Source: a virus (Duplodnaviria; Caudoviricetes). From it: 53,497 nucleotides of DNA. How positions within the stretch are numbered: the stretch's first letter is position 1; every line of letters starts with the position of its first letter. Below, in pieces: positions 20,457 to 53,497 of the stretch. Below the pieces are notes generated by a model. The model made no database searches, was not told the DNA's origin, and worked only from the letters and a program-made list of their open reading frames with translations. The stretch spans positions 1 to 53,497 of IMG/VR virus record IMGVR_UViG_3300032295_001119. One strand, given 5' to 3'. A program made the position numbers and the translations under genes.

Positions 20457-21854
20457 TTATTTGTTGCTATTAGCACGAACAGTAGCAAAATCAATTTCCT
20501 TGACTAGCTTACCATCACGGTAAACTTCCTCAAGAACTTCAGTCCAAGGACCAATTGCTTTATCGTACCAACCTTTGGGTTCATCTACACTAGTGACAAA
20601 CTCACCGCCTGACTTCCAAAGAGTAACACGACCTTTTTTGGACACTTTGCCTGAATCAGTGATTGGGTCTTTGAAAACATCAACCCATTCGCCGTTGACT
20701 TGTGCCGAACTACATTTCATGGCGAACTTCTGTGTGTCACGGTCAAGTTGTTGCAACAATGCACCACCCATACCGAATGCAAGGTTATCGGCACTCCAAC
20801 CATTCAAGTCAACTACAACACCGAGAATGCTACGGACACTCAATTGGTTGATACCATCACCCCAAAGCAAACGAACATTGTTCAATACTTTGTAACCTTT
20901 ACTGTTTGTAGTGTAGCCGAAGCCTTCACCTAAGATACGCATCATCTTTGGCAACACTTCAACTGGATCACCACTGTCTGGACGAATAACAACTGTAGCA
21001 CCACTGTCAATCACTTGTTGTTTCAACTCAGTGCCCCACATGCGGCATGCTTCGTAAATGTCGTAGCTGTCAGAGACAACTGCCAACAATGCACCTGGTA
21101 CACCAAACTGCTTGACCATGTTGTTGTAGGCTTTTACTTCACCTGCACGACCCCAAGAAGTAATTGTACTGTGCTCGGCAGCAGGTATTGAGAAACCAGC
21201 AATTCCAGCATTGTAATACTCACGAGCAAACAGCACACCCGAAATAGTGTCTGTTCCCATAAAGTTGACAAGATGGGCGGCCGATCCGATGCCAGCACTC
21301 TCCAGGCTACTAACACCCCGAGCGCCGAAATCATGCAACTTAAAATCAATAGTAGTGGGGTCACCTGACTTCTCCAAATATTCAGTGATGATGTTTTTAA
21401 CCATTTTGCTTTGGGTAGCGACAGTAGTAGGATACCAGATTGCGCGGAGCAATGCAGTCTCAAGCCAAGTAGTCAGCCAATAGCATTTCGGGTCAGTATT
21501 TTCAATTGTTGCAAGTACATTTTTGACAGGGACCATTGTTCCTTCGGGCACTGCTCTAATAACAACGGGGAGGTATCCATTATGGTTGTCAAGAATGTAC
21601 TGCCATCCTGCTCTGTTGAAGGGCTCACCGTGTGCGGTAAGTAACTCATCAGCAATTTCGATGTCTGCTTGAGTGATTGGTTCGAGAAGGTATTCTTTGA
21701 TAAAAGCCTGTAGTCCGAAGAATACAGTTCTATCGTAACGCCCACCTCGGCTTTCAATGTACGAATAAACACCTGTAGTGCCTGCTGGGTATTGTTTGAA
21801 CATCGACACTTTGTAGCTGTCAGTGTTGAGAATAATGTTTTTTGCGAGTTTCAT
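20457..21854 (-). CDS. nadV: Nicotinamide phosphoribosyltransferase
   Basis: TDSYK, LHDFGARG, AAEHS, VSDSYD, IRPDSG, GDG. Confidence 0.95.
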   Translation of the reverse strand: MKLAKNIILNTDSYKVSMFKQYPAGTTGVYSYIESRGGRYDRTVFFGLQAFIKEYLLEPITQADIEIADELLTAHGEPFNRAGWQYILDNHNGYLPVVIRAVPEGTMVPVKNVLATIENTDPKCYWLTTWLETALLRAIWYPTTVATQSKMVKNIITEYLEKSGDPTTIDFKLHDFGARGVSSLESAGIGSAAHLVNFMGTDTISGVLFAREYYNAGIAGFSIPAAEHSTITSWGRAGEVKAYNNMVKQFGVPGALLAVVSDSYDIYEACRMWGTELKQQVIDSGATVVIRPDSGDPVEVLPKMMRILGEGFGYTTNSKGYKVLNNVRLLWGDGINQLSVRSILGVVVDLNGWSADNLAFGMGGALLQQLDRDTQKFAMKCSSAQVNGEWVDVFKDPITDSGKVSKKGRVTLWKSGGEFVTSVDEPKGWYDKAIGPWTEVLEEVYRDGKLVKEIDFATVRANSNK

Positions 21855-22643: not shown

Positions 22644-23666
22644 TTAAGCTCCTAAAAAGTGTTGCAAAATTTCATAGTGATCCTCGAAACATTCTTCCGA
22701 TTTTACATCACTGATTGGTACCCAACGTGCTTTCTCAGCATCGTCATTTCCTTTTACTTTTGGCAGTTCGCCATCGGGCAATTCAATATGAAATGCATGA
22801 GTAATGATACGACCGCGCGGACTACGACCAATCGCATCAAAGACCTTGCTACGTTTGATGCTACCACGCAATACGGGCGCGGGTACTTTAATCATTGTTT
22901 CTTCACGTAATTCACGGATAGCCGCATCCTCTACTGACTTGTCAGTAGTTGCATTGACATAACCGCCGGGTAGTGCCCACAGACCTTTACCAGGCTCTGC
23001 TCTACGTTTAATCATTAGTACATGACCTGATTGAATGACTACACTATCAGCAGTACTAAAGATTGGGGGATAAGGAAGTGAGGCATATTGCTTTTTGTAG
23101 TTGGCAACAAACTCACGTTCACGAATAATTTGTTCGTACTCAGGTGTAGTGCGAAACTGTTCCAAGAAATCAAATGTAGTTTCAGGAACCACACCTTGAA
23201 TGAATTTCATGTTAACGTCACGCTTGAAATACAAGTCCCGAATGTCAACTGCACTCAAAAATTCAATGAGTCCTACATTCTCATATCCCCATTGAGGGAA
23301 CATATCGAGGTAGAAACTTGAATCATCTTTCTTGTGACCGATGATGCCAACACCGTCACCGCCAAGAACACGATATTTACTCACGATTCCTTGAACACGG
23401 ACAGCCCATGCTTGGTCGTTGTAAATTGTGTCAATGTTTTCTTCAACATATACCTGCATGTTAAGACCGCGGGTAGCGTTCTTAATCATTACTGCACGTT
23501 CGGCACTTGTGAAAGGGTTCTTATAAGTTCGGGGCTGTTTGCCAGAACCTGTGATAATGACCAATTGGTCAGTCAATGCTGTGGCGCGTTTGATAATCTC
23601 AAGGTGAGCATTGTGTAGTGGTTGAAAGCGTCCAATGAGGACAAGTGTGTCATACTTTTTTGACAT
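22644..23666 (-). CDS. nadM: Bifunctional NMN adenylyltransferase / ADP-ribose Nudix hydrolase
   Basis: GRFQPLHNAH and Nudix box GG...EDAAIRELREET. Confidence 0.93.
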   Translation of the reverse strand: MSKKYDTLVLIGRFQPLHNAHLEIIKRATALTDQLVIITGSGKQPRTYKNPFTSAERAVMIKNATRGLNMQVYVEENIDTIYNDQAWAVRVQGIVSKYRVLGGDGVGIIGHKKDDSSFYLDMFPQWGYENVGLIEFLSAVDIRDLYFKRDVNMKFIQGVVPETTFDFLEQFRTTPEYEQIIREREFVANYKKQYASLPYPPIFSTADSVVIQSGHVLMIKRRAEPGKGLWALPGGYVNATTDKSVEDAAIRELREETMIKVPAPVLRGSIKRSKVFDAIGRSPRGRIITHAFHIELPDGELPKVKGNDDAEKARWVPISDVKSEECFEDHYEILQHFLGA

Positions 23667-31170: not shown

Positions 31171-31512
31171 TCAACCTTTGATACCGAATGTATTCAGTGC
31201 AGGTTGCAGGGTGTTAATCAATAGTGTCTCACGCTCATGTGCAGGACGCTTGCCACGCACAACTTCAACAGTACCGAATACAAAACGCTCGGCACCACGC
31301 TCACGCAATGCACAAGACAGACCCCAGTTTTTGTTTTCAGCAAGGGCACGTTGCATGTGCTTTTGCATACGACGGCGTAGTGTGCGAAAAACATTACCTT
31401 TGAAAGACAGTGCGGTCAAACCAATGTAGTACTCAAGTGTTACAACATCTTGGATGTAGTAAATTACTTGGTTACGATCAGTTCTGCGTTTGCGGGTGAT
31501 TTTCGAGTTCAT
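31171..31512 (-). CDS. GIY-YIG-like nuclease domain protein
   Basis: VIY.I......YYIG...R...H...E....LN; leaderless after promoter 31519-31547. Confidence 0.6.
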   Translation of the reverse strand: MNSKITRKRRTDRNQVIYYIQDVVTLEYYIGLTALSFKGNVFRTLRRRMQKHMQRALAENKNWGLSCALRERGAERFVFGTVEVVRGKRPAHERETLLINTLQPALNTFGIKG

Positions 31513-31550
31513 AAGTGTATTATATACCCAAACCCATTTATTGTCAACCT

Positions 31551-31775
31551 TTAGAATGCACGATACAACCCTAGCATACAGATTCCTGCGGAAACTACGT
31601 TGACAACTACCTGAGCATTGTTGCGAACCCTGTAAGCCCATGTAAGGAAAAACAATGTTCCGAAACTGAATGCTATAATATTATAGGGATCCATGTTTCC
31701 CATAGCGTTCAGAGTGTGACCCAAAACGATGAAAAATACCCCTACCCATTGAATGATGTCATTTGTTTTATTCAT
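31551..31775 (-). CDS. Small membrane protein
   Basis: Three TM segments; leaderless after promoter 31782-31810. Confidence 0.7.
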   Translation of the reverse strand: MNKTNDIIQWVGVFFIVLGHTLNAMGNMDPYNIIAFSFGTLFFLTWAYRVRNNAQVVVNVVSAGICMLGLYRAF

Positions 31776-33303: not shown

Positions 33304-33330
33304 AAAAAAAGGGGCCGAAGCCCCTTTTTT
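33304..33330. terminator. Bidirectional intrinsic terminator
   Basis: A7-GGGGC-CGAA-GCCCC-T6. Confidence 0.8.
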
Positions 33331-33928
33331 AACCTGGTCCATAGACCTCTTCACGGCTTTTCATACCAACAGTGCCGCCTTCTGCTATGATTCGTTTTAC
33401 AACATCCTCAAAGAGAATTGGTCTAAAGTCAGTTTGCTCAACACATACACAATGATACCGAGGATCGATGACCTCATCAAATTGTGTTGTGTTACCCCAA
33501 CGAACTTTTTGTGTGACACGGTGTGCATGAAGATGTCCGTGAATGTTAGTGCCGAACCTACCGAGGTTACTTTCATGCATAGGGATGTGACTGAGGATAC
33601 AACCATTCATCACATGATATGCACGGATATCTCTAAAGTGTTCGGTGTAATCCTCAAGCTTAAAGATATCGTGGTTCCCCTTGATAAGAACTTTATCACC
33701 GTTCAACCGGTGCATGATTTTCAATGCTTTGCGATTGATAACAACATCACCCAAGTGATAAACCTTATCACCGGGTTTTACTGTCTCATTCCAACGCTTG
33801 ACCATCTCCTCATCCATTTCCTCAGGAGTATCCCAAGGGCGTAACTTTGTGACACCATCAGGTCCTGTAAACTTACAAACACCAAGATGTCCAAAGTGCG
33901 TATCACTAGTTAAAAACACACTAGGCAT
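33329..33928 (-). CDS. Metallophosphoesterase
   Basis: SDTHFGH, LGD, GNHD, HGHLH. Confidence 0.9.
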   Translation of the reverse strand: MPSVFLTSDTHFGHLGVCKFTGPDGVTKLRPWDTPEEMDEEMVKRWNETVKPGDKVYHLGDVVINRKALKIMHRLNGDKVLIKGNHDIFKLEDYTEHFRDIRAYHVMNGCILSHIPMHESNLGRFGTNIHGHLHAHRVTQKVRWGNTTQFDEVIDPRYHCVCVEQTDFRPILFEDVVKRIIAEGGTVGMKSREEVYGPG

Positions 33929-33929
33929 A

Positions 33930-34397
33930 TTATTCTCCTATTACTCTAATTTCAGCAAACCCTTCGTCAGTCGTAGGCATAACAAAACCTTCAATCATTG
34001 ACTTCATCACATGATCGGGGATAATCTTGCCTGGACGACTTGACAACCTCTTATCTAACTCAACCTGATCAGGAGTATTGAACACTACAGCAATATGCTC
34101 ATAGTCCGGTAACATGTTAAACTTTCTTCTCCGAGTAATCTCAGTAGTAGATGTTTGGTCCCAGATAATGTCCATACCCTTATCACGTGCTAACTCAACA
34201 TGTTGAGCCATCAACTTCACTGCATGTGGCATATAATCCTGAAAGATTTCAGTGTAGGTCTTTCCTACTCGTTCTGCTTCCATTTCTACCCACATGTCAG
34301 TAGACACAATAGCGCAATCCTTAGCCCAGTCTTGAGACTTTATCCAAGTACTCTTTCCCGAGCCCGGTACTCCTACTAGTTGATAGCACACAGGCAT
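33930..34397 (-). CDS. P-loop kinase, polynucleotide-kinase/AAA_33-like
   Basis: GVPGSGKST, STD, DQT...R, R...R lid. Confidence 0.8.
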   Translation of the reverse strand: MPVCYQLVGVPGSGKSTWIKSQDWAKDCAIVSTDMWVEMEAERVGKTYTEIFQDYMPHAVKLMAQHVELARDKGMDIIWDQTSTTEITRRRKFNMLPDYEHIAVVFNTPDQVELDKRLSSRPGKIIPDHVMKSMIEGFVMPTTDEGFAEIRVIGE

Positions 34398-34696: not shown

Positions 34697-36112
34697 TTAG
34701 CAGTTGTAACGATAGTTCATGATGGTCTTCATCATCATACCTTCTGGAGTGAACTCAGAAGGATCTGCACCAAGCAGACTTGCCATGATGCTTGGGCTAA
34801 AGCCAGAGACTAAAGCCGCACCAGACTTGTCACTCTTGACCGGAACGTTATCACTTGCGTTTAAGTTCCAGAAGACCACACTAGGCACTTCGTAACCTGC
34901 ATCACGGAACTTACGTTCAATCATCTGCATAGCAGAATCATCGTGATTCACACATGCATTGAATTGCATGTCTGAAAGGATCAACACCATCTTAGGCATG
35001 TCAGATTGAGGAACGTTGTTCTTCACTGCCACAGCCAAGACCTTGTCAAAAGCCTTGTGCAAGTTAGTATCCATAGCCCACTTAGAGGTAATCATTTGAT
35101 TAACCTTCTGAACGATATCACCCTTAAGGGTCAACAGTTCAGGTGTGCCACTGAAAGTCAAGAATGTGTCCTTGAACGCACCCTTGTTCTTGTCAGCTAG
35201 ATACAGACCTAGCGAGACAGCAACATCCAAGCAACTAACGCTTGTGTTCTTACCTGCTGGGCAAGTCATAGAACCACTAACGTCTACCATTGGTAGAATG
35301 TTTGCGTCATTCATATAGTTAGGAAGAGCATCCCACTGTGCAGTCAAGTGATCCAACTCAGTCTTACCTAGAGTTGCACGACCGTACGGGTTGATGATGT
35401 CCTTCAAAACTTCGTGAGGGAACACTGCCGAAGCATTGACCTTAACGGTCTTGTCACCACTCACTAGCTTCTGCACGTATTCAGCGAATGTTACAGAATG
35501 ACGGTTGAACGCCTTCTTGTAGATTCGTGCTGCCTGTGAAGGCACATGCGAGAAGTTGATGTTGTCCCAATCTTGGGCACACATCTGTGTTTCAACTACC
35601 TTAGTAAGAGCAACAAGGCTCTTACGGTATTGCTTCGGAGTCATACCGAAGAACTCGCGGATTTCACGTGCGACTTCACCCTTACGAGGAGTCCACTTTG
35701 CCGCAAGGCCATTCTTTGCACGAAGGGCATCGCCCAACATTGTGTAAGCCTTAGCCTTCAAGTCCGGAGTCTTGAACACTAGCAAGTCGTCATAACGACC
35801 TACTTCTGGCACCTTTGTCATCAAACGTGCCGCCGATTCAGGATCGGTCTTTTCCAAGTGAGTCAAAATGTCACGGAACAATTGACGTTCACCTGCACCA
35901 CCGCGGGCATCACGTGCCCACAATGCGATACGTAGTGCTAGATCCTTATTTTGAACCATAGCCGCAGTAAACTTAGGAACGATGTCCTTGCCACGGCTAG
36001 CACCGATGTTGTAGAACAAGTCCACCAATGCGTTAGCAGTGGACTTACGAGCCTTCATACCGTTTTCAGTACGAGCTTCTTGATTTGCGATTGCGTTTAC
36101 AAATGCGTTCAT
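34697..36112 (-). CDS. DUF2828-type helical + vWA protein (Ro60/TROVE-like architecture)
   Basis: RD.RGG.GER, G..DDL, AKW.PR, MIDAS DVSGSM, SDMQF, VFWNL, SGFS. Confidence 0.8.
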   Translation of the reverse strand: MNAFVNAIANQEARTENGMKARKSTANALVDLFYNIGASRGKDIVPKFTAAMVQNKDLALRIALWARDARGGAGERQLFRDILTHLEKTDPESAARLMTKVPEVGRYDDLLVFKTPDLKAKAYTMLGDALRAKNGLAAKWTPRKGEVAREIREFFGMTPKQYRKSLVALTKVVETQMCAQDWDNINFSHVPSQAARIYKKAFNRHSVTFAEYVQKLVSGDKTVKVNASAVFPHEVLKDIINPYGRATLGKTELDHLTAQWDALPNYMNDANILPMVDVSGSMTCPAGKNTSVSCLDVAVSLGLYLADKNKGAFKDTFLTFSGTPELLTLKGDIVQKVNQMITSKWAMDTNLHKAFDKVLAVAVKNNVPQSDMPKMVLILSDMQFNACVNHDDSAMQMIERKFRDAGYEVPSVVFWNLNASDNVPVKSDKSGAALVSGFSPSIMASLLGADPSEFTPEGMMMKTIMNYRYNC

Positions 36113-36128
36113 TTTCTTTTCCTTTGTC

Positions 36129-36185
36129 AGAATGTGTTTTATTTTCAGATATTGGTTGAAATTTAAAAGTTGCTGTTAACATTCT
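36129..36185 (-). ncRNA. ACAGCAA-family ncRNA A (57 nt)
   Basis: AGAATGT-TAACAGCAA...ACATTCT terminal helix. Confidence 0.6.
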
Positions 36186-36196
36186 ATGTCTCTAGC

Positions 36197-36452
36197 AGGA
36201 TGAGCGTAACTGGTGTTTTTATTTTCTGGTCAGCCTTTCCCCTGTATATCGGTTCAGTTACCTTGACCCTATCAACAATTCATGTTGACTATCTAGTAAT
36301 TGTGTCTGCTACTAGCAACATACAAAGTCTTTCCAATGTGTCGTCTATTCCTTCAATGTCTAGTTTCTTAGAACAGTATTTCTACTGTGTCCTGCAACCA
36401 TCTTCTATAGCAGTTAGTTCAGATTTAATGTTTAATTTGCTGTAATCATCCT
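36197..36452 (-). ncRNA. ACAGCAA-family ncRNA B (256 nt, structured)
   Basis: AGGATGA-TTACAGCAA...TCATCCT; internal hairpins incl. CAGTA-GAAA-TACTG. Confidence 0.7.
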
Positions 36453-36649: not shown

Positions 36650-36678
36650 ATTGTACATGTATTTTGAATTAATATCAA
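36650..36678 (-). promoter_or_regulatory. sigma70 promoter for ncRNA C-B-A + DUF2828 unit
   Basis: TTGATA-N17-TACAAT. Confidence 0.6.
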
Positions 36679-36911
36679 TACTCTTTGGGTATCTTCTTTG
36701 TTGCGATTCGTTTTAAGTAGTCTCTACCGACTAAACCTTTTTCGATTTCTTGTAGCGCGGTCACGGTTGGACCTGCTTTAGTAACGAGTTTTGGGTGATG
36801 GCCTCGTTTTAGTTCTCTGACTCTAGCTGATGCAATCAAAACTAAATCGAATCGATTGCCTACCATGCTAACGGCATCTTCGCTTGTATACCGGGCTCTG
36901 CTTTCTGTCAT
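36675..36911 (-). CDS. rpoZ: RNA polymerase omega subunit
   Basis: AR.T.ED....GNRFDLVL.AS.R.R.L......K....V.AL.EI..G. Confidence 0.88.
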   Translation of the reverse strand: MTESRARYTSEDAVSMVGNRFDLVLIASARVRELKRGHHPKLVTKAGPTVTALQEIEKGLVGRDYLKRIATKKIPKEY

Positions 36912-40566: not shown

Positions 40567-41853
40567 TTAGTATCTGTATGTTTCTGCTTTGTAAGGACCT
40601 TCTACTGAAACTCCTATGTACTTAGCTTGTTCATCAGTCAATGTCGTTAGTATAGCACCTATTTTATTTAAATGCAACCTTGCAACCTTCTCATCCAAGT
40701 GTTTTGGTAAAACGTACATTTGACCAACTTCATATTTTTGAGAATTTGTCCAAAGTTCAATCTGTGCAATTACTTGATTAGTAAAACTGTTGCTCATTAC
40801 AAAGCTTGGATGACCTGTAGCACAACCTAAGTTGACTAAACGACCTTTTGCAAGAATGATAATCTTGCGACCATTACTCAATTTTACATGATCTACTTGT
40901 GGTTTGATTTCTGTCCACTCACAATCGCTCAATCCTGCAATATCAATCTCACTATCAAAGTGACCGATGTTACAAACGATTGAATTTTCTTTCATCTGTA
41001 GCATATGGTTTACTTTGATAACATTAACGTTACCGGTAGCAGTAACGAAAATATCAGCTTCTCTACATGCTTGATCCATTGACACAACACGGAAGCCTTC
41101 CATTGCGGCTTGTAATGCACAGATAGGATCTGTCTCAGTGACCCAAACTTGGGCACTCAAAGCACGTAATGCTTGTGCAGAACCTTTACCAACATCACCG
41201 AAGCCACAAACAACTGCAACTTTACCTGCAATCATTACGTCAGTAGCACGTTTGATACTATCAACTAGACTTTCACGGCAACCATATAGGTTGTCAAATT
41301 TAGTCTTAGTGACTGAATCATTAACATTGATGGCACGTAACTTGAATTTACCTTGCTCAATTGCTTCTTTGATACGATGAATACCTGTAGTTGTTTCTTC
41401 ACTGACACCAGTGATTCCAGCTAACAACTCAGGCTCTTTTTCATGTACATACCATGTCAAATCATGACCATCGTCAAGTAACATATTAGGAGTCCAACCA
41501 TTTGGACCACGTACTGTTTGCTCAATGCACCACCAGTATTCATCTTCTGTTTCGCCTTTCCAAGCAAAGACAGGAATACCTAGATCGGCAATTGCCGCCG
41601 CGGCATGATCTTGTGTGCTGTAGATATTACAGCTAGACCAACGAACGTCGGCTCCTAAATCAACTAATGTTTTGATTAGAACCGCTGTTTGTATCGTCAT
41701 GTGCAAACTGCCTGCAATTCTTGCACCTTTGAGTGGCTTCTGTGACAAATATTCATCACGTATTGCCATCAAGCCGGGCATTTCACCTTCAGCAATTTCA
41801 ATCTCTTTGTGGCCCCATTGAGCCAGTGTAATATCTTTAATTTTATAGTCCAT
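40567..41853 (-). CDS. ahcY: S-adenosylhomocysteine hydrolase
   Basis: [46 protein letters not shown]. Confidence 0.97.
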
Positions 41854-41870
41854 GTGTGCTTTCTTGTAAG

Positions 41871-41944
41871 TGGAGCGGGGTAGGAGAATCGAACTCCTCG
41901 CATTAGCTTGGAAGGCTAAGGTATTACCACTATACGAACCCCGC
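41871..41944 (-). tRNA. tRNA-Gly(TCC)
   Basis: Cloverleaf, CCA. Confidence 0.92.
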
Positions 41945-41956
41945 ATAAATATACTT

Positions 41957-42121
41957 ATGCACACTTACGATGCTATCACAAAAACCGGATTGTATATCCA
42001 TCTTTCTATGATGGAAGAACAATCATTTTACATACTTGTTCAAGACCTTGACAATTTCACATTAACTATGAAATTCTTCAATGACCCGAACACTGCTAGA
42101 GAATTCATCAAATCATTATGA
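41957..42121 (+). CDS. Small protein
   Basis: TAAATA-N5-ATG. Confidence 0.5.
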
Positions 42122-42777: not shown

Positions 42778-42895
42778 ATGAGATCGTACTAGATTTTTCT
42801 TTTACGTGCCATCCTAGAACCATACGGGGGTTTAGAATGACACTATCGTTTGCCTGAACGTTTCATGTCAAATTTCCTTTTTGTTAAGAGTTGAT

Positions 42896-42924
42896 AGTAT
42901 ATGCTAAACAGGATTATTTGTCAA
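42896..42924 (-). promoter_or_regulatory. sigma70 promoter
   Basis: TTGACA-N17-TATACT. Confidence 0.75.
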
Positions 42925-42939
42925 GCCTATACAAAAATT

Positions 42940-43143
42940 AGTTGTCTAGCTACTCACACCACATGAGCCCTAAACTGAGCAGTTACTCTGTCCATGATAT
43001 TTTCTTCTTCTGGAAAGGCTATCAATCCTCACCCTAGGCAGTTTTCAGTATCCCCCAACAGGGACTGTAAGGTCAGGTCCTAGTGTACCCCCTGGTCTAT
43101 CGTTACAGGGACGCACTTTCATAACGTGAAAGTGTAAGCCGGG
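42940..43143 (-). ncRNA. Candidate structured ncRNA (~200 nt)
   Basis: ORF-free, GC-richer than flanks, several hairpins. Confidence 0.45.
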
Positions 43144-43632
43144 TTAGTCGGGTTTCAAGAAGAAATAGTTGTCTTTTGGAACCCAAATAAGAGAATCTGA
43201 TAAAAAATCATCTTCATTGATGATTTTAGTAGAATACATGCCACTATCCACAATTTGCGGATGGGAATATACGTCATAAAATTTTCTTAGTAAGTTAAAA
43301 TTTATCCCCGGTTTATTATGCAAACATACTTGCCAGGCTGCCCCTCCAGTTAACACGTTAGAATTATCAGGTAGATAATTCCTTAATTCTTCTAAATTGT
43401 TCACATATTGATGTTGTGGATAAACTGATTCAAACAGCGCATGTGTTCTATACTTTTCAGAATCACAGTTATTGTTTACATATCCAGAACAAAAAAATAT
43501 TTGCTGGAATTCTTTCTTAACTACAAAAGCTAGCAATCTTGCATAAAATTGCATAGTGGTTTTTGGTTTGGTGGATTTTATCCAATTTTCTCCCCAGCAA
43601 TCTATAAGAATCAACGCATCAAATTTTATCAT
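43144..43632 (-). CDS. Isochorismatase/cysteine-hydrolase-like protein
   Basis: ALILIDCW, GGAAWQVC. Confidence 0.45.
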   Translation of the reverse strand: MIKFDALILIDCWGENWIKSTKPKTTMQFYARLLAFVVKKEFQQIFFCSGYVNNNCDSEKYRTHALFESVYPQHQYVNNLEELRNYLPDNSNVLTGGAAWQVCLHNKPGINFNLLRKFYDVYSHPQIVDSGMYSTKIINEDDFLSDSLIWVPKDNYFFLKPD

Positions 43633-43645
43633 AATGTATTTATAA

Positions 43646-43722
43646 TGGTACCCCAACCTTGATTCGAACAAGGGACCCTCGCCTTATCAAGACGATGCTC
43701 TAACCAACTGAGCTATTGAGGC
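43646..43722 (-). tRNA. tRNA-Ile(GAT)
   Basis: Cloverleaf, CCA. Confidence 0.92.
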
Positions 43723-43724
43723 AA

Positions 43725-44477
43725 TTATTTTTTGATTCGATCAACAATCCATGCACCTATATCAATTTCATTTGGTAGTTCACCAAATCGATAATTTGCA
43801 GGACTGTTATGATGATTGTTGTGCCATCCAGCACCCAATGCAATATAAGATATCAATGGAACATTTCTTGAGTTATCTTTTGTGTCATACGTTCTATATC
43901 CAAAGTTTGGACTATGGAAACAATAGTTACTCAAGTTATCTGCTAGTGACACTAAAAAGAATGCACCTACGCAGAAAAAGAACAGAAAGAAGTGTATATC
44001 TATCAATGCTAATATCAATCCTAATGACCAATAAAGTTTGTAGTAATGGTCATGTGTTAGTCTGATAATTTTATCTTTATACAATTTTCTAGGGGCAATA
44101 AATCCTTGTGTACTAAAATCACCTTTGATTTGCCAACCCCAAGAACTTCTCCAAAAACCATGCATTGGAGAATGTATATCTGCAAGTGTATCAGAATTTC
44201 TGTGATGGTGTAGATGCAATGCTGTCCAAAATATAACAGATCCTTGCCCTGTCATACTTCCTAACAACAAAAACATATAATGCCAAAATTTAGAAACTTC
44301 AAAACTCTGATGAGTAAAGTATCGATGAAACCCTACAGTACCACCAAAGATACACAACAAATATCCTAAAAGCATATACAAAACATATAACCAACTGAAA
44401 TCTGTAATCAGAAGGAATGTCGCAACACCCAACAATATAAATTGCGGTAGCATAAGTTTATAAAAATGATGACTCAT
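43725..44477 (-). CDS. Membrane fatty-acid desaturase (delta-9 type)
   Basis: His boxes HRYFTH, HLHHH, HNNHH. Confidence 0.9.
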   Translation of the reverse strand: MSHHFYKLMLPQFILLGVATFLLITDFSWLYVLYMLLGYLLCIFGGTVGFHRYFTHQSFEVSKFWHYMFLLLGSMTGQGSVIFWTALHLHHHRNSDTLADIHSPMHGFWRSSWGWQIKGDFSTQGFIAPRKLYKDKIIRLTHDHYYKLYWSLGLILALIDIHFFLFFFCVGAFFLVSLADNLSNYCFHSPNFGYRTYDTKDNSRNVPLISYIALGAGWHNNHHNSPANYRFGELPNEIDIGAWIVDRIKK

Positions 44478-44500
44478 ACGTTTATTTAGTTATATGTTAC

Positions 44501-44562
44501 AGGATGCATTTTTACGGTTTTGATTAGAAGTCAAATGTATAAATGTTTGCAGTTAGCATCCT
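44501..44562 (-). ncRNA. ACWGCAA-family ncRNA D carrying Arg(UCU) anticodon arm
   Basis: AGGATGC-TAACTGCAA...TTTGA-CTTCTAA-TCAAA...GCATCCT. Confidence 0.75.
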
Positions 44563-44567
44563 TGTTC

Positions 44568-44657
44568 TGGCGGAAGCGGTGAGATTCGAACTCACGGGAC
44601 GCTTTCACGTCCGGCGGTTTTCAAGACCGCTGCCATAGACCACTCGGCCACACTTCC
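44568..44657 (-). tRNA. tRNA-Ser(TGA)
   Basis: Cloverleaf with long variable arm. Confidence 0.93.
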
Positions 44658-45748
44658 TAATTCAACGGGACTATATAATCCCTTGCATCTTTTTTGTTCA
44701 TGAATACATTGTAGTTGTATTCACAAATTTTGTTTAATTCTATAGACAAGATGTGCCATTCAGTATCACTTAAATTGCACAACCTTTCTACTTCATTGAC
44801 AATCATTACCATTCGTTTATATGGATCATACTCTTTATCATATGATTCGTCAAAGAATGGATTGAATGTCTTGTATCCAATTTCTTTTAATAACTCTAAA
44901 CTGTTCGGTGAAGTTATTAACAGAAATGGGTGCTTGTGTATGATAGGCTTGAATGTTTTTTCACTAAAGAACCTATTACCATTGTTGTTGAAAAAGTATG
45001 TCTCGCTCACAACACTAAAATATGAAGATTCATAAAATGATATCATGGATTCAGTAGGGTAATTATGCATCACTGTTTTATCAGTTGTATCTAAAACCAA
45101 AGGTTCTAAACTTTCTAATCTATCAATGTAATTCTCTGATATCTGATTATCGAAGTGATGCCAAATCTCACGCCAAGATATATCAGTCTGAAAACTGACA
45201 TACCCTTTATCTAACAAATTTCTAATCTCGGATAAACCCACAAACAAAAATCTATGTACTCTATCAACCTCATTACGTCGGTTCAGATTCAAAAATCTTT
45301 TTAATTTAGGTTTAGTATGATCCACACACACATTGTATCTACGGGTATGTTGCTCGAAATAGTTATACCAAAATGTTTTTATAGGTTTTCTGTTCAGTGT
45401 TTCAGCAACTTCATTTACCGTTGTTACCGCATCCCTTGATGCAATTACTAATGCAATGTTTTCTTCAGAAATATTTAACTCAAGTATGATATCGGTGTAG
45501 ATAGAGTGTATCACCTCAGGAAAAGATTCAAACTCCATAGCTAGCAAAAGCTTAATGTTTCCCTTAACTATGTTGTCGAATATTTGTTGAGGAATGTGAT
45601 TAACTACATGTTTAGTAGCATCATACGAACTTATTCCAATATACCAATACAAATCAGTAGAAGGAATATCATATTCTTTTACAAGATTGTTTGCCAACTC
45701 TCCATTGAGGAGTAATCGCTTTCTTAATTGTTGATTGAGTATAGGCAT
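44657..45748 (-). CDS. Glycosyltransferase-like protein (TEKT family paralog 3)
   Basis: LNRR..HR, VVSET, SEKTFKP, HPF, FDESYD. Confidence 0.5.
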   Translation of the reverse strand: MPILNQQLRKRLLLNGELANNLVKEYDIPSTDLYWYIGISSYDATKHVVNHIPQQIFDNIVKGNIKLLLAMEFESFPEVIHSIYTDIILELNISEENIALVIASRDAVTTVNEVAETLNRKPIKTFWYNYFEQHTRRYNVCVDHTKPKLKRFLNLNRRNEVDRVHRFLFVGLSEIRNLLDKGYVSFQTDISWREIWHHFDNQISENYIDRLESLEPLVLDTTDKTVMHNYPTESMISFYESSYFSVVSETYFFNNNGNRFFSEKTFKPIIHKHPFLLITSPNSLELLKEIGYKTFNPFFDESYDKEYDPYKRMVMIVNEVERLCNLSDTEWHILSIELNKICEYNYNVFMNKKDARDYIVPLN

Positions 45749-45768
45749 ATTTTATTTAAGCCTAAATT

Positions 45769-45856
45769 TGGCGGATAGTATAGGATTCGAACCTATGCGC
45801 CCATTTCTGAACGACAGTTTAGCAAACTGCTGCCTTAACCACTCGGCCAACTATCC
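45769..45856 (-). tRNA. tRNA-Ser(GCT)
   Basis: Cloverleaf with long variable arm. Confidence 0.92.
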
Positions 45857-45865
45857 ATAAAATTT

Positions 45866-45942
45866 TGGTGCTCCCAACTGGACTCGAACCAGTAACCGAT
45901 CGATTATGAGTCGATTGCACTAACCAATTGTGCTATAGGAGC
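45866..45942 (-). tRNA. tRNA(CAT), Met or Ile2
   Basis: Cloverleaf, loop CTCATAA. Confidence 0.9.
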
Positions 45943-45944
45943 TA

Positions 45945-46034
45945 TACCATATAAAAACACACTTAAACAGTCCTTCAACGCTAGACGCTATCTCCCCAAC
46001 TAGAGGGCGGAGCTGTGTGTGTTTTTATATGGTA
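45945..46034 (-). repeat. Long-stem element H2
   Basis: Perfect 18-bp inverted repeat TACCATATAAAAACACAC overlapping tRNA-Leu ACCA. Confidence 0.85.
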
Positions 46035-46113: not shown

Positions 46114-46127
46114 AAAAATCTGCAATT

Positions 46128-46177
46128 AATTTTTAAAGAACAGATGCTATTATATAGCACCTGCAATTTATTGTCAA
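46128..46177 (-). promoter_or_regulatory. sigma70 promoter plus boxA-like element
   Basis: TTGACA-N17-TATAAT then TGTTCTTTAAAAA. Confidence 0.75.
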
Positions 46178-46181
46178 TGAA

Positions 46182-46378
46182 TTTGTAAGTCGTTGCGTCC
46201 CTCATATCGCAACCATTTTCCCATGTAATTAAGCCGGCTGGGTCAAGATCCGTCACTTGGGCTTTGTCCAGTCGGCACACCATATGCCTGTAGTGAGGAC
46301 TCGAACCTCCAACCTTCTACTGTTTTGGTAGTTCGAACATACCTAGACAGCGTGACTCCACTTGCTGACACTTACAAA
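46182..46378 (-). ncRNA. Structured ncRNA with T-loop, CAGCAA-variant family member
   Basis: TTTGTAAGT-GTCAGCAA...ACTTACAAA helix; GAGG-TTCGAGT-CCTC T-arm. Confidence 0.6.
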
Positions 46379-46381
46379 ACT

Positions 46382-46873: not shown

Positions 46874-46947
46874 TGGCATCCCGCGAGAGATTCGAACTCC
46901 CACCAAGGGTTTTGGAGACCCGTATGCTGCCGTTACACTAGCGAGAT
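46874..46947 (-). tRNA. tRNA-Trp(CCA)
   Basis: Cloverleaf; overlaps 3' end of upstream CDS. Confidence 0.88.
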
Positions 46948-47478
46948 ATTTAATTCTTTAAGTTTATTTATATAGTGTTCTTCACCTTGACTGACAGTTG
47001 AACGCCAATCAACTAATGAATCTTCATTGGCACCATCACTGACAAACTTATAACATAAAAATTCAGTATTGGTTTTCCTACATACCTTTGCAATAGCATA
47101 TGCTTCCATATCTACTACATCAGCAGGTATCAATAAATTACTATCTGTAACAAAGTTGTCACCTGTACTACAAGTTAGTCCATCACCATTATCAATGATG
47201 ATGGTATCTTCAAATGGTGTTTGACCTGGTTGACTGCCTAACTCACAACACATCATATCACGTTGAACAAATTTAGTCACTTGATGAAATCCTGACTTAA
47301 CAGTGACTCCACCTGCAGTGCCAAAGTTGATAACACGTTTAGGATTGTACTTAGCGATGAGTTCAGCCGCAGTCATTGCGGCATTGACTTTACCGACACC
47401 TGTATAGAATACATTCATGCTATATGACATATTAGGTGCTTCATCTTTCAAAGCAATCAATATCAAATCATTATACAT
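46933..47478 (-). CDS. MTA/SAH nucleosidase-like (PNP/UDP family)
   Basis: GVGKVNAA, NFGTAGG, TGD.F, DMEAYA, K.VSD. Confidence 0.85.
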   Translation of the reverse strand: MYNDLILIALKDEAPNMSYSMNVFYTGVGKVNAAMTAAELIAKYNPKRVINFGTAGGVTVKSGFHQVTKFVQRDMMCCELGSQPGQTPFEDTIIIDNGDGLTCSTGDNFVTDSNLLIPADVVDMEAYAIAKVCRKTNTEFLCYKFVSDGANEDSLVDWRSTVSQGEEHYINKLKELNISLV

Positions 47479-47493
47479 CAAATGTCCTATGTT

Positions 47494-47570
47494 TGGCGTG
47501 ACTAGAGGGATTCGAACCCCCGACCGTTTGCTTAGAAGGCAAATGCTCTATCCTACTGAGCTATAGTCAC
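47494..47570 (-). tRNA. tRNA-Arg(TCT)
   Basis: Cloverleaf; anticodon arm TTTGC-CTTCTAA-GCAAA. Confidence 0.93.
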
Positions 47571-49277: not shown

Positions 49278-50753
49278 TTATTTTTTTAATAAAGTGAATA
49301 ACTTTGTTTTGTATTCTTGAATAAATTTAGGTATCGCATGTGTTGATAACAGATCATACCTAAAATCTTTAAATGCAGTTTCTCTTACGTCATCCAATTT
49401 GTATCCATGATTCACTAGTTCAAACAAATCATGACCCGAAACTTTAAAATACGGCATGTCTCTAGATGAACTATTGCACTGCACTGCGATGCGACTAGCT
49501 ATAGCAGAATTTAAATGTTCATTTTTCCAGACATTATACCCTGATTCATTTTTCGTAACTGTATATCCATACTTTTCGTAATTGAGATCGATATCACTCA
49601 AAAAACTAATGTCTTGGTTGATGTAAAGGGCTCTTGTAACCCAACTGTGTAACGCTAGTTCTCCTCTAGCTAACTGAGTAGTTGTTTGAATTAAGCTAGA
49701 AACAGGTTCATCAGGTAATCCAATAATGAAGCTTCCGTGCATACTTATTTCTGGGTATGTTTTTCGTATTTTTGTTATAGTGGCTGTCTGCTTTTCTCTA
49801 TTATAGCCTTTACCTATTATTTTACCTGTCTTTTCGTTCATTGTCTCTATACCAAAATAGACACATCTGATTCCTATTTCATACATCGTATGAATCATTT
49901 CAGGACGAACACATATCAAATCTAATCTTGAATAGCACCAAAAGTATGGTTTAAAAGGTAACCTCTTTACCATGTCAGCAATAGTATTAAGTTTTTCTTC
50001 ACTGTCATTGAACGTATCGTCTACGATTATGTAGTGAGTGACTCCAAACTTTTCATAATTTTCTAACAACTCTTGATACAAGATATCAGATTCTTTTATG
50101 TAGTCTAGTTTGTTTTTTCCATTCAATGGGAACGAGCAAAACTTACATTTAAAAATACATCCTCTACCTATCTCTATGGGAAGAACTTTATGGTTAACTA
50201 CATCTGTCTCTTCCCAAATCATTTTATCTAAACTGAAATCATAACCAGATGCGGTTCTATCATCAATGATAGTAATTCCATATAAATTTTTCATTGCATT
50301 GTTTAAAGGATCACCTTTGGTTAAATGATTCAATAGATTTACAATGCTTATTTCACTGTATCCCAACACTACATAATTTATGTTTTTGTTGTCATACATA
50401 TTGGACGTTTTACTTCCACCAACTGCAAACTTTATGTTCTTATTTTTACTACGTATGTAGGATATCACTTCATCTTCAAATTCCTTACCTTGTGGCAAGA
50501 TAAAATTTGTTCGTGCGTATCCTACAGTTTTTAAAAAAGTAGTGCTGAATCCAAGCAACTTAGTTTGATCGGACACTGTTAAATCAATCAAGTCCTTAAT
50601 CTCATTAAGTGAAAAAGTTGATACGTGATTGACTACTAAAGCTTTGTACCCATTCTTTCGCAAAACACACGCAACCTTGAAGGCTCCCAGTGGGGCAGAA
50701 ATCTGAATAGTATCAGAATCATTGTTGTCTGTGAAAATTATAGCGTCATACAT
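49278..50753 (-). CDS. Radical SAM protein with B12-binding-like N-domain
   Basis: RGCIFKCKFC, DDTFND, GIET, FIIGLP.E. Confidence 0.85.
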   Translation of the reverse strand: MYDAIIFTDNNDSDTIQISAPLGAFKVACVLRKNGYKALVVNHVSTFSLNEIKDLIDLTVSDQTKLLGFSTTFLKTVGYARTNFILPQGKEFEDEVISYIRSKNKNIKFAVGGSKTSNMYDNKNINYVVLGYSEISIVNLLNHLTKGDPLNNAMKNLYGITIIDDRTASGYDFSLDKMIWEETDVVNHKVLPIEIGRGCIFKCKFCSFPLNGKNKLDYIKESDILYQELLENYEKFGVTHYIIVDDTFNDSEEKLNTIADMVKRLPFKPYFWCYSRLDLICVRPEMIHTMYEIGIRCVYFGIETMNEKTGKIIGKGYNREKQTATITKIRKTYPEISMHGSFIIGLPDEPVSSLIQTTTQLARGELALHSWVTRALYINQDISFLSDIDLNYEKYGYTVTKNESGYNVWKNEHLNSAIASRIAVQCNSSSRDMPYFKVSGHDLFELVNHGYKLDDVRETAFKDFRYDLLSTHAIPKFIQEYKTKLFTLLKK

Positions 50754-51045: not shown

Positions 51046-51133
51046 TGGAGGAAAGCTAGAGAATCGAACTCTAACCTATTACTAGATCCATCTGTTTTCG
51101 AAACAGTGCCAATCCCAGACTAGTTAACTTTCC
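51046..51133 (-). tRNA. tRNA-Ser(CGA), atypical D-arm, U73
   Basis: Long variable arm, loop TTCGAAA. Confidence 0.75.
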
Positions 51134-53432: not shown

Positions 53433-53497
53433 TGGTGGAGATGCCGGGATTCGAACCGCGGACAAGAACTTTTACAGAGTTAGAGCTATAGAGTTGC
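53433..53497 (-). ncRNA. Truncated tRNA-like RNA (GTA anticodon arm, T-arm, CCA; no normal D-arm visible)
   Basis: GCAACTC...AACT-CTGTAAA-AGTT...GGTTCGAATCC-CGGCATCTCCACCA; cut by window end. Confidence 0.55.

Follow-up and report, generated by a model that had tools for sequence, protein, structure and literature searches.

The mini-RNA and its neighborhood

The stretch of phage DNA analyzed here, referred to as the window, comprises the 53,497 nt (53.5 kb) of IMG/VR record IMGVR_UViG_3300032295_001119, a record that is ~11% complete by CheckV. ARAGORN located 31 tRNA genes in the window, every one on the minus strand, spanning 36.9–53.4 kb. Within this array, at 44500–44562, lies an element of about 62 nt, here called the mini-RNA, with a terminal helix that serves as a handle and a head that resembles a bare tRNA anticodon arm. 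A preliminary description of the window had placed a hairpin at 44519–44535 between the strands of a helix shared by a family of elements, had likened it to the anticodon arm of the phage tRNA-Arg(UCU), and had suggested a decoy for anticodon nucleases presented on a Ro-like handle. Because the strings given in that description are the reverse complement of the plus strand, the mini-RNA is read from the minus strand, 5′ to 3′ from 44562 to 44500. Its parts and immediate surroundings are as follows, with loop and stem bases in tRNA numbering.

46149..46177, minus: consensus sigma-70-type promoter, 12 of 12 positions, which likely drives a polycistronic transcript
44568..44657, minus: tRNA-Ser(UGA), with its CCA end 5 nt ahead of the mini-RNA
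44556..44562, minus: 5′ strand of helix P1 (AGGAUGC), including the inferred first base of the RNA; 7 pairs, 100% paired in 35 homologues
44546..44555, minus: single-stranded motif UAACUGCAAA (family consensus UAACAGCAAA), invariant or near-invariant in the family
44537..44543, minus: 5′ strand of helix P2 (UUUAUAC); helix 79% paired, 3 of 7 pairs changing on both sides
44531..44535, minus: 5′ strand of helix P3 (UUUGA), anticodon-stem look-alike, positions 27–31; helix 92% paired
44524..44530, minus: 7-nt loop CUUCUAA (C32 U33 U34 C35 U36 A37 A38)
44519..44523, minus: 3′ strand of P3 (UCAAA; U39 C40 A41 ...), supported by covariation counts
44509..44515, minus: 3′ strand of P2 (GUAAAAA), supported by covariation counts
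44500..44507, minus: 3′ strand of P1 (GCAUCCU; helix strand 44507–44501) and a conserved G, part of the CUGU tail

The whole RNA is thus laid out as A-GGAUGC / UAACUGCAAA / C-A-UUUAUAC-A / UUUGA-CUUCUAA-UCAAA / ACC / GUAAAAA-U / GCAUCC-U-G. An open reading frame (ORF) starts at 44477, 23 nt downstream of its end. A megablast search of 43600–46000 against phage records returned short tRNA matches only, with no close relative among them.

Structure of the mini-RNA

The coordinates of the preliminary description were borne out: the hairpin runs from 44535 to 44519 on the minus strand, and the strands that flank it, 44562–44556 and 44507–44501, form the helix by which the family is defined. The sequence GGATGC-N30-60-GCATCC occurs once in the window, compared with 0.03 occurrences expected. 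Folding of the single minus-strand sequence produced the terminal helix and the 5-bp/7-nt hairpin at −11.8 kcal/mol (z = −2.73), with 3 of 200 shuffled sequences folding as well; the fold of the plus strand (z = −1.38) was no better than that of shuffles. A covariance model built from 35 aligned short members of the family (minis), designated R1, scored the mini-RNA at 83.6 bits on the minus strand versus 8.2 bits on the plus strand. A chance hairpin was ruled out by the shuffle test and the R1 score, and a plus-strand reading by the shuffle-like fold and the 8.2-bit score. Neither ARAGORN nor Rfam called a tRNA at 44500–44562; therefore, the mini-RNA has no D arm, T arm, or CCA, just as the preliminary description had stated. 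Its head has the features of an anticodon-arm module, namely, a 5-bp stem, a 7-nt loop, a pyrimidine at 32, U33, and a purine at 37.

A phage RNA family with a constant handle

A search of viral contigs with the 17-nt handle pattern AGGATNCTAACWGCAAA gave 113 matches in 100 stretches, and 98 of the 113 had a complementary 3′ strand within 400 nt downstream. With a looser scan we obtained 138 elements in 87 loci, 98 of them no longer than 75 nt, 34 of 90–140 nt, and 6 longer. The base preceding the element was A in 133 of these 138, and UGU followed it in 120 (...AUCC-UGU); the motif TAACAGCAA was present in 141 of 164 family elements. At E <= 0.001, R1 gave 162 matches in the 100 viral loci, whereas 100 bacterial loci that contain this pattern and 57 unrelated viral loci gave no match. 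The pattern itself was found in bacterial and archaeal genomes at least 120 times, which is about the chance expectation, and essentially never with its partner strand. Among the bacterial and archaeal matches listed, true family elements were present on one contig, which we take to be a phage binned into a metagenome-assembled genome, and one further case was doubtful; no host could be inferred from these matches.

The proposed structure was examined in the 35 aligned minis. The three helices had 90.5% of their cells paired, compared with 27–46% in controls in which the partner strand was slid, and the covariation score was 0.265, compared with 0.089 in shuffles; none of 500 shuffles reached 0.265. 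Compensatory changes were found at two of the seven P1 pairs, with zero broken cells, and at four of the five pairs of the P3 head stem.

Besides the copy at 44500–44562, the window contains three other family members that share the outline of the handle:

36128..36185, minus: member D, handle GAAUGU; R1 42.2 bits, E 3e-9; directly upstream of the gene for a Ro60-like protein (see below)
36197..36451, minus: member A, 255 nt, handle GGAUGA...UCAUCC; the same form is found in relatives L036, L077, and L106
52530..52645, minus: member C, a long permuted tRNA-like form; weak match to the Rfam YrlA model (RF02553), 29.4 bits with a cut-off of 69

Members D and A lie back to back. Judged from the sequences collected, the family is specific to phages and combines a constant handle with exchangeable heads. 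The mini-RNA belongs to a large and apparently undescribed family of handle-sharing small RNAs. In the papers covered by literature searches on the handle motif, the family, and DUF2828, no description of it was found; among those listed for the motif, the matches were to microRNAs or primers.

The head has the signature of ANN-reading anticodon arms

The preliminary description had reasoned that a genuine anticodon-arm mimic should keep a 5-bp stem and a 7-nt YU-NNN-RN loop among homologues while the anticodon varied. This is what we found: a stem of 4–5 bp with a 7-nt CU-NNN-AA loop was kept, with NNN varying, in 40 of 72 distinct minis, whereas a stem of at least 4 bp with such a loop turned up in shuffled cores 0.37 times on average and never more than 4 times. 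The heads of the remaining minis were very diverse. For the head alignment, 35 of the 40 minis with the signature were used, five having been dropped because they appeared to belong to other subtypes. In the 35, C32, U33, A37, and A38 were invariant, U36 was present in 34, and positions 34 and 35 varied; the closing pair was A31-U39 in 34. The middle triplets were UUU (15 minis), UCU (5, including the window copy), UGU (5), GCU (5), and GUU (2), with GUA, AUU, and GAU occurring once each. As read from these alignments, the family arm type, A31-CU-NN-UAA-U39, is the signature of tRNAs that read ANN codons.

The resemblance to tRNA-Arg(UCU) stood only in part. The arm of the phage tRNA-Arg(UCU) gene at 47494–47570 is TTTGC-CTTCTAA-GCAAA; its loop is identical to that of the mini-RNA, and the stems differ at pair 31-39 alone, as the preliminary description had noted. 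However, the UUUGA/UCAAA stem of the mini-RNA is the family consensus, common to the UUU-type minis, and its head is a single loop base away from that of relative L002 or L054. Moreover, A31-U39 was found in only 2 of 38 phage tRNA-Arg(UCU) genes of related loci. Because the arm fits the Lys-like consensus of the family, the tRNA-Arg identity appears incidental, and the "one compensatory change" in the stem is therefore best read as coincidence. The sequence comparison, then, is best explained by a shared loop, produced by a single loop substitution, together with a coincidentally similar stem, and the specific tRNA-Arg interpretation does not hold.

Unusual anticodon stems were seen among the phage tRNA genes that ARAGORN called in the related loci (L001–L100). 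Of 46 tRNA-Lys(UUU) genes, 29 have G31-C39 and 15 have A31-U39; of 56 tRNA-Thr(UGU) genes, 27 have a U31-U39 mismatch. Escape from nucleases that cut tRNAs could be the reason for such stems. The control loci contained seven bacterial tRNAs, too few to give a host-like consensus.

A second type of mini combines the same handle with a hairpin whose loop terminates in UGG(U), as in UUUUGGU, AAUUGGU, and AAAUGGU. Minis of this type were found in L003 (e.g., 2503–2559), L008, L013, L015, L021, L059, and others, often on the same contig as an anticodon-arm mini. The UGG(U) loop is similar to a D loop; alternatively, it could base-pair with the NCCA 3′ end of a tRNA.

Long forms resemble whole permuted tRNAs

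Among 31 distinct long forms of the family, a T loop is present in 26 and a D-arm pattern in 18. In 14 of the 31, an anticodon-type hairpin precedes a T arm, a closed acceptor stem, and a D arm; given this order, these RNAs are whole, circularly permuted tRNA mimics mounted on the handle. The closing pair of the arm in the long forms is C31-G39, unlike that of the minis. The long forms are also the best, although sub-threshold, matches of the family to the Rfam YrlA model, with scores of 29.4 to 39.5 bits (31–39.5 bits for those of relatives) and a cut-off of 69.

Linkage to a gene for a Ro60-like protein

The preliminary description had spoken of a Ro-like handle, and this idea gained support from the linkage of the family to a gene for a protein that is predicted to fold like Ro60. 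The gene and its downstream neighbors are the following:

34697..36112, minus: Ro60-like protein gene, DUF2828 + DUF7788, with a von Willebrand factor A (vWA) domain and a DxSGS metal ion-dependent adhesion site (MIDAS), identified with Pfam, AlphaFold, and Foldseek
33930..34397, minus: P-loop kinase, polynucleotide-kinase-like
33329..33928, minus: phosphoesterase, phrog_547

The ORF (36112–34697) belongs to PHROG 850, "RNA-binding protein," and has thousands of metagenomic relatives. Its AlphaFold model had a predicted local distance difference test score (pLDDT) of 80.7 and a predicted template modeling score (pTM) of 0.79. In a Foldseek search of the PDB, the 12 best listed matches were all Ro60/TROVE chains, aligned over the full length (E 4e-8 to 5e-5, template modeling score about 0.5, 515–560 columns), from Thermus phage phiLo, Xenopus, Deinococcus, and human. 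The MIDAS residues, D277-x-S-G-S281, were invariant in 25 sequences. Sequence matches in the PDB were limited to two TROVE chains, with a weak E of 0.08. On the evidence of the model, the DUF2828/DUF7788 protein is one that folds like Ro60, as a HEAT-repeat ring with a vWA domain containing a MIDAS. A search of the ESM Atlas returned viral DUF2828 clusters only, and the literature searched contained no description of a DUF2828 function.

PF11443 was found in 22 of the 37 records searched: in 21 of the 32 chosen for a paired family RNA, most of which are fragments of 10–25%, and in one of the five with an unpartnered pattern match, a record that proved to contain members of the family next to the gene. 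In 21 of these 22 relatives, as in the window, the Ro-like gene is immediately preceded by a family RNA on its own strand. The same arrangement, with the RNA upstream of the protein gene, is described for Ro60/Y-RNA systems of bacteria and phages in the available text of two reports (PMC4201824, PMC12135203). The kinase and the phosphoesterase are found within 1–3 kb downstream of the Ro-like gene in at least five other loci as well.

Expression and processing

A tRNA lies at most 12 nt upstream of the family element in 105 of 157 cases, with the element usually beginning 5–6 nt past the CCA, and a tRNA follows within 12 nt (9–12 nt) in 81; in 75 of the 157 the element has tRNAs on both sides. 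No terminator-like site was found between the promoter at 46177–46149 and the mini-RNA. The flanking tRNA, the promoter, and the uninterrupted path from it together suggest that the mini-RNA is most likely cut from a tRNA precursor, presumably by the enzymes that process tRNA ends.

In a freshwater metatranscriptome, one 431-nt contig covered 44499–44563 with five differences and probably represents the copy of a relative. The coverage of the window by RNA libraries falls on tRNAs and intergenic RNAs and not on ORFs. All four library runs consist of assembled contigs, in which ends, strands, and levels cannot be read and gaps carry no information.

Comparison with known RNA systems

The closest known parallel is with the bacterial YrlA Y RNAs (RF02553) and their partner Ro60/Rsr. 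In the available text on YrlA (PMC4201824), these are likewise small RNAs that adjoin the gene for a Ro-type ring protein, have a terminal stem made from their 5′ and 3′ ends and a variable module that mimics tRNA, and occur as several RNAs per genome. The phage family differs in several respects. Its handle has the single strand UAACAGCAAA, and no copy reaches the Rfam cut-off of 69 bits; its protein is a DUF2828/DUF7788 protein, unmatched by Pfam TROVE; its long forms keep an extra anticodon arm and so amount to whole permuted tRNAs; and its minis have an anticodon arm only, without T, D, or acceptor parts. The terminal stem of the minis is present and covaries, but its sequence differs from that of canonical Y RNAs. 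We conclude that the mini-RNA represents a new version of the Y-RNA/Ro system, one in which the head is an isolated anticodon arm. What is new relative to YrlA is the handle sequence, the Ro60 fold of the DUF protein, and the use of single tRNA parts or whole permuted tRNAs as heads.

Thermus phage phiLo also has a Ro60-fold protein with Y-like RNAs, Yrl1 and Yrl2, upstream of its gene (PDB 9KOP, 9L5Y; PMC12135203), and this protein is the best structural match of the Ro-like protein in the window. According to the part of the phiLo report available, its RNAs were found through a CGAA motif and its protein is a recognized TROVE protein, and that part mentions neither embedding in a tRNA array nor an anticodon-arm head (PMC12135203).

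A resemblance of a different kind is to the Class I RNAs of Dictyostelium (RF01414). As described in the text available (PMC7919456), these are RNAs of ~60 nt with a 5′ G, a short stem joining the ends, a 3′ CUGU, and an otherwise variable sequence. The phage family shares these features and has next to the stem the sequence CU-ACAGCAA, with all five of the near-invariant Class I positions, U3, C6, C9, A10, and A11. The minis also agree with the described length of 42–65 nt and with the 11-nt motif, except that the family motif has A for U at position 4 and the window copy departs additionally at position 7 (PMC7919456). RF01414 was the best Rfam match of the minis: the window copy scored 19.6 bits and two relatives scored 28.8 and 32.3 bits, all short of the 41.5-bit cut-off, and at E <= 1 the model matched two minis in 16 loci. 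Differences are clear as well. In the same partial source, Class I RNAs come from eukaryotic genes, each with its own Dictyostelium upstream sequence element (DUSE) promoter ~60 nt upstream, whereas the window copy lies in a bacterial-type tRNA operon; their known direct partner is an RNA recognition motif (RRM) protein, and the available text does not describe an anticodon-type head (PMC7919456). The resemblance may reflect homology, a shared partner, or convergence. Under one bold version, the handle would be homologous to Class I RNAs, both would partner with DUF2828-type Ro-like proteins in a cross-domain ribonucleoprotein family, and the various heads of the phage RNAs, from the anticodon arm and the UGG-loop hairpin to the whole permuted tRNA, would serve as a set of tRNA pieces that baits tRNA-directed immune nucleases; we consider this version unlikely.

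The tRNAs with which phage T5 counters the AriB nuclease of PARIS offer a functional parallel. There, too, according to the text available, a phage RNA countermeasure centers on the anticodon arms of Lys(UUU), Thr(UGU), and Asn(GUU) tRNAs (PMC12409363), and the tRNA-Lys genes of phages related to the window often differ at pair 31-39. The T5 molecules are full, functional tRNAs that resist cleavage and replace the cut host tRNAs (PMC12409363). The mini-RNA cannot be charged and keeps a sequence of the cleavable type; it could act only as bait or competitor.

Proposed function of the mini-RNA

We propose the following model. The mini-RNA would be a ~62-nt noncoding RNA, transcribed from the minus strand together with tRNAs in one polycistronic transcript, from which the enzymes that trim its tRNA neighbors would free it. 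Its handle, consisting of the 7-bp terminal helix, the single-stranded UAACAGCAAA, and the 3′ CUGU, would most likely be the binding site of the phage Ro60-like ring protein (DUF2828/DUF7788). Its head would be a bare look-alike of the anticodon arm of ANN-reading tRNAs (A31-C32-U33-N-N-U36-A37-A38-U39), and a bare anticodon arm can be a look-alike only for something that reads anticodon arms. By this molecular mimicry the arm would be offered to a protein that recognizes anticodon arms while the RNA stays bound to the Ro-like particle. As the client, a tRNA-cutting defense nuclease of the host is the likeliest candidate, and it would be trapped or titrated; alternatively, a tRNA-handling enzyme might be recruited to the particle. 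By analogy with Y RNAs, the constant handle would be expected to contact the Ro-like ring, leaving the variable head to engage another factor. Membership of the mini-RNA in the family, the covarying structure, the anticodon-loop signature, the linkage to the Ro-like gene, and the Ro60 fold of the modeled protein are results of the analysis, whereas expression and processing, the binding of the handle by the Ro-like protein, and the identity of the client are inferred. The composite model of a Ro-bound mimic that engages an anticodon-arm-reading factor strikes us as an evenly balanced proposition; its narrower version, in which the mimic is specifically nuclease bait, is plausible but tentative, and we would not yet favor it.

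The bait version finds circumstantial support in what is known of two nucleases, as given in the available text of the respective reports. AriB of PARIS targets Lys(UUU), Thr(UGU), and Asn(GUU) tRNAs; a change at U39 renders a T5 tRNA resistant, with pair 31-39 and positions 39–41 decisive (PMC12409363). The loop types UUU, UGU, and GUU are all found in the family, and the mini-RNA contains U36-A-A-U-C-A, the site reported for AriB in the same partial source (PMC12409363). PrrC, for its part, is described as recognizing mainly the anticodon stem-loop (PMC1484252, available text). The contrast between the prevalent G31-C39 of the phage tRNA-Lys genes (29/46) and the A31-U39 of the minis (34/35) fits a strategy of resistant working tRNAs plus sensitive-looking bait.

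Several results pull in the other direction. Those that bear on the head are that U36-A37-A38 is a general signature of all ANN-reading tRNAs, that the pattern fitting the bait version is equally a property of all of them, and that the inner hairpin is AU-rich and thermodynamically marginal. RNAalifold, applied to the 35 homologues, recovered the terminal helix alone; the inner hairpin is supported by covariation counts and not by energy. As to the handle, it is without the defining features of canonical Ro-binding sites; the YrlA model gave no match to 44470–44570 even at E <= 10, and long member C reached 29.4 bits on RF02553 against the required 69. Pfam TROVE (PF05731) had zero matches in the window at E <= 1, and the copy at 44500–44562 lies inside the tRNA array, 8.4 kb away from the Ro-like gene. 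Among five related records, the RNA ligases RtcB, PF09414, and PF09511 were found in zero, one, and one, respectively, and a 94%-complete relative of 345 kb had none of the three; with ligases so inconsistent, a complete repair pathway is not evident. Finally, the AriB data come from Escherichia coli, and the evidence from RNA libraries is one contig, in libraries that can hold the sequence of relatives or DNA.

Other explanations account for parts of the same evidence. The head might be a leftover from a long form that lost its T, acceptor, and D arms; it would then have no client of its own, and the handle alone would matter. Such an origin would explain why 14 of 31 long forms have an anticodon-type arm at the same place, why the heads of the other minis are so diverse, and why RNAalifold does not call the head hairpin. 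Yet 35 distinct sequences hold C32, U33, A37, A38, the 7-nt loop, and compensatory changes at four of five stem pairs, which is unlike a freely drifting leftover, and the C31-G39 arm of the long forms differs from that of the minis; we regard this origin as having a low probability. The head could instead imitate the substrate of tRNA-modifying or tRNA-handling enzymes, such as the machinery for N6-threonylcarbamoyladenosine at position 37 (t6A37), and be modified itself or soak up or recruit those enzymes. U36-A37-A38 is common to ANN-reading tRNAs that carry t6A37, and it is present in 34 of 35 minis while positions 34 and 35 vary; nothing in the window points to t6A genes, however, and the divergence of the phage tRNA-Lys genes at 31-39 from the A-U of the minis would be left unexplained. 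YrlA RNAs are known substrates of tRNA-modifying enzymes, according to the text available (PMC4201824); on balance, the idea appears rather improbable.

Two further explanations were considered. In one, the mini-RNA would act in cis within the tRNA transcript, where it could signal processing, serve as a spacer signal or a weak terminator, or form the 5′ leader of the ORF at 44477. The fixed spacing between tRNAs in most loci, the U-rich tract that often follows the helix, and the position of the window copy ahead of an ORF are compatible with this. Against it, no terminator-like site was found and the tail of the window copy is not U-rich; 57 loci with (distant) relatives of the downstream ORF contain zero family RNAs; the identity of the upstream tRNA varies; and some members lie beside the Ro-like gene, away from tRNAs. 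Nor does a spacer need an invariant 10-nt single strand or an anticodon-type loop, and we give a cis-acting role little credence. In the other, the bare arm would occupy the decoding site of the ribosome at matching codons and tune or block translation. Isolated anticodon arms can occupy the 30S A site, and the resemblance to such arms is the sole support for this idea; nothing is seen that would deliver the RNA to ribosomes, the hairpin is weak, and neither the linkage to the Ro-like gene nor the conservation of U39-C40 is explained. We consider it highly improbable.

Other features of the window

Additional features were noted in and around the tRNA array. An intergenic region at 46114–46381 (minus), which includes the consensus promoter, contains a T-arm-like element and a helix-flanked region; the bin 46175–46341 was covered in RNA libraries at a depth of 1004–1576. 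A 366-nt ORF-free gap at 42778–43143 (minus), notably 43026–43122, has no Rfam match and may contain a conserved structured RNA; the bin 43002–43168 had summed depths of 1397 and 5262 in two freshwater RNA libraries. At 51050–51133 (minus), between tRNA-Leu(GAG) and an ORF, lies a tRNA-like gene with a long extra arm; ARAGORN misses it, and its score with the Rfam tRNA-Sec model is 35.2 bits (cut-off 47). The end of the window truncates a tmRNA, whose 3′ part lies at 53433–53497 (minus; 13.1 bits). A relative has a complete two-piece (permuted) tmRNA (L025:3296–3600; 117 bits); together, these indicate that such phages carry their own tmRNA.

Nine copies of a minus-strand promoter module of 36–45 nt, TTGACAATAAAT...TATAAT with conserved flanks, are spread over 20164–49197 (e.g., 31508–31552) and probably represent a class of phage early or middle promoters. 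Metabolic and accessory genes interspersed with the tRNAs, at 20457–21854, 22644–23666, 40567–41964, 46933–47481, 49278–50753, and 36675–36911, encode a nicotinamide phosphoribosyltransferase, a NUDIX/cytidylyltransferase fusion, an S-adenosylhomocysteine hydrolase, a nucleoside phosphorylase, a radical S-adenosylmethionine (SAM) protein, and an RNA polymerase omega-like protein. At 1–1674, repeats with a 9-nt period form a long array that falls within open frames of both strands and may code for a collagen-like or fiber protein.

Significance

Animals, bacteria, and a few phages are known to have Y RNAs and Ro60, and the family described here bears on what the tRNA-like part of bacterial Y RNAs does. 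Lake phages with dozens of tRNA genes contain it in abundance, and it is linked both to an uncharacterized DUF protein with a Ro60 fold and to RNA end-healing enzymes. With 62 nt in all and a head of 17 nt, the mini-RNA is amenable to base-by-base mutation against tRNA-cutting defense nucleases. If the link to the Dictyostelium Class I RNAs were true, through common descent or a common partner, it would provide a first mechanistic lead for those RNAs. If the bait idea is true, the mini-RNAs would constitute a new class of RNA-based counter-defense, beside the nuclease-resistant phage tRNAs, and DUF2828/DUF7788 would gain a function.

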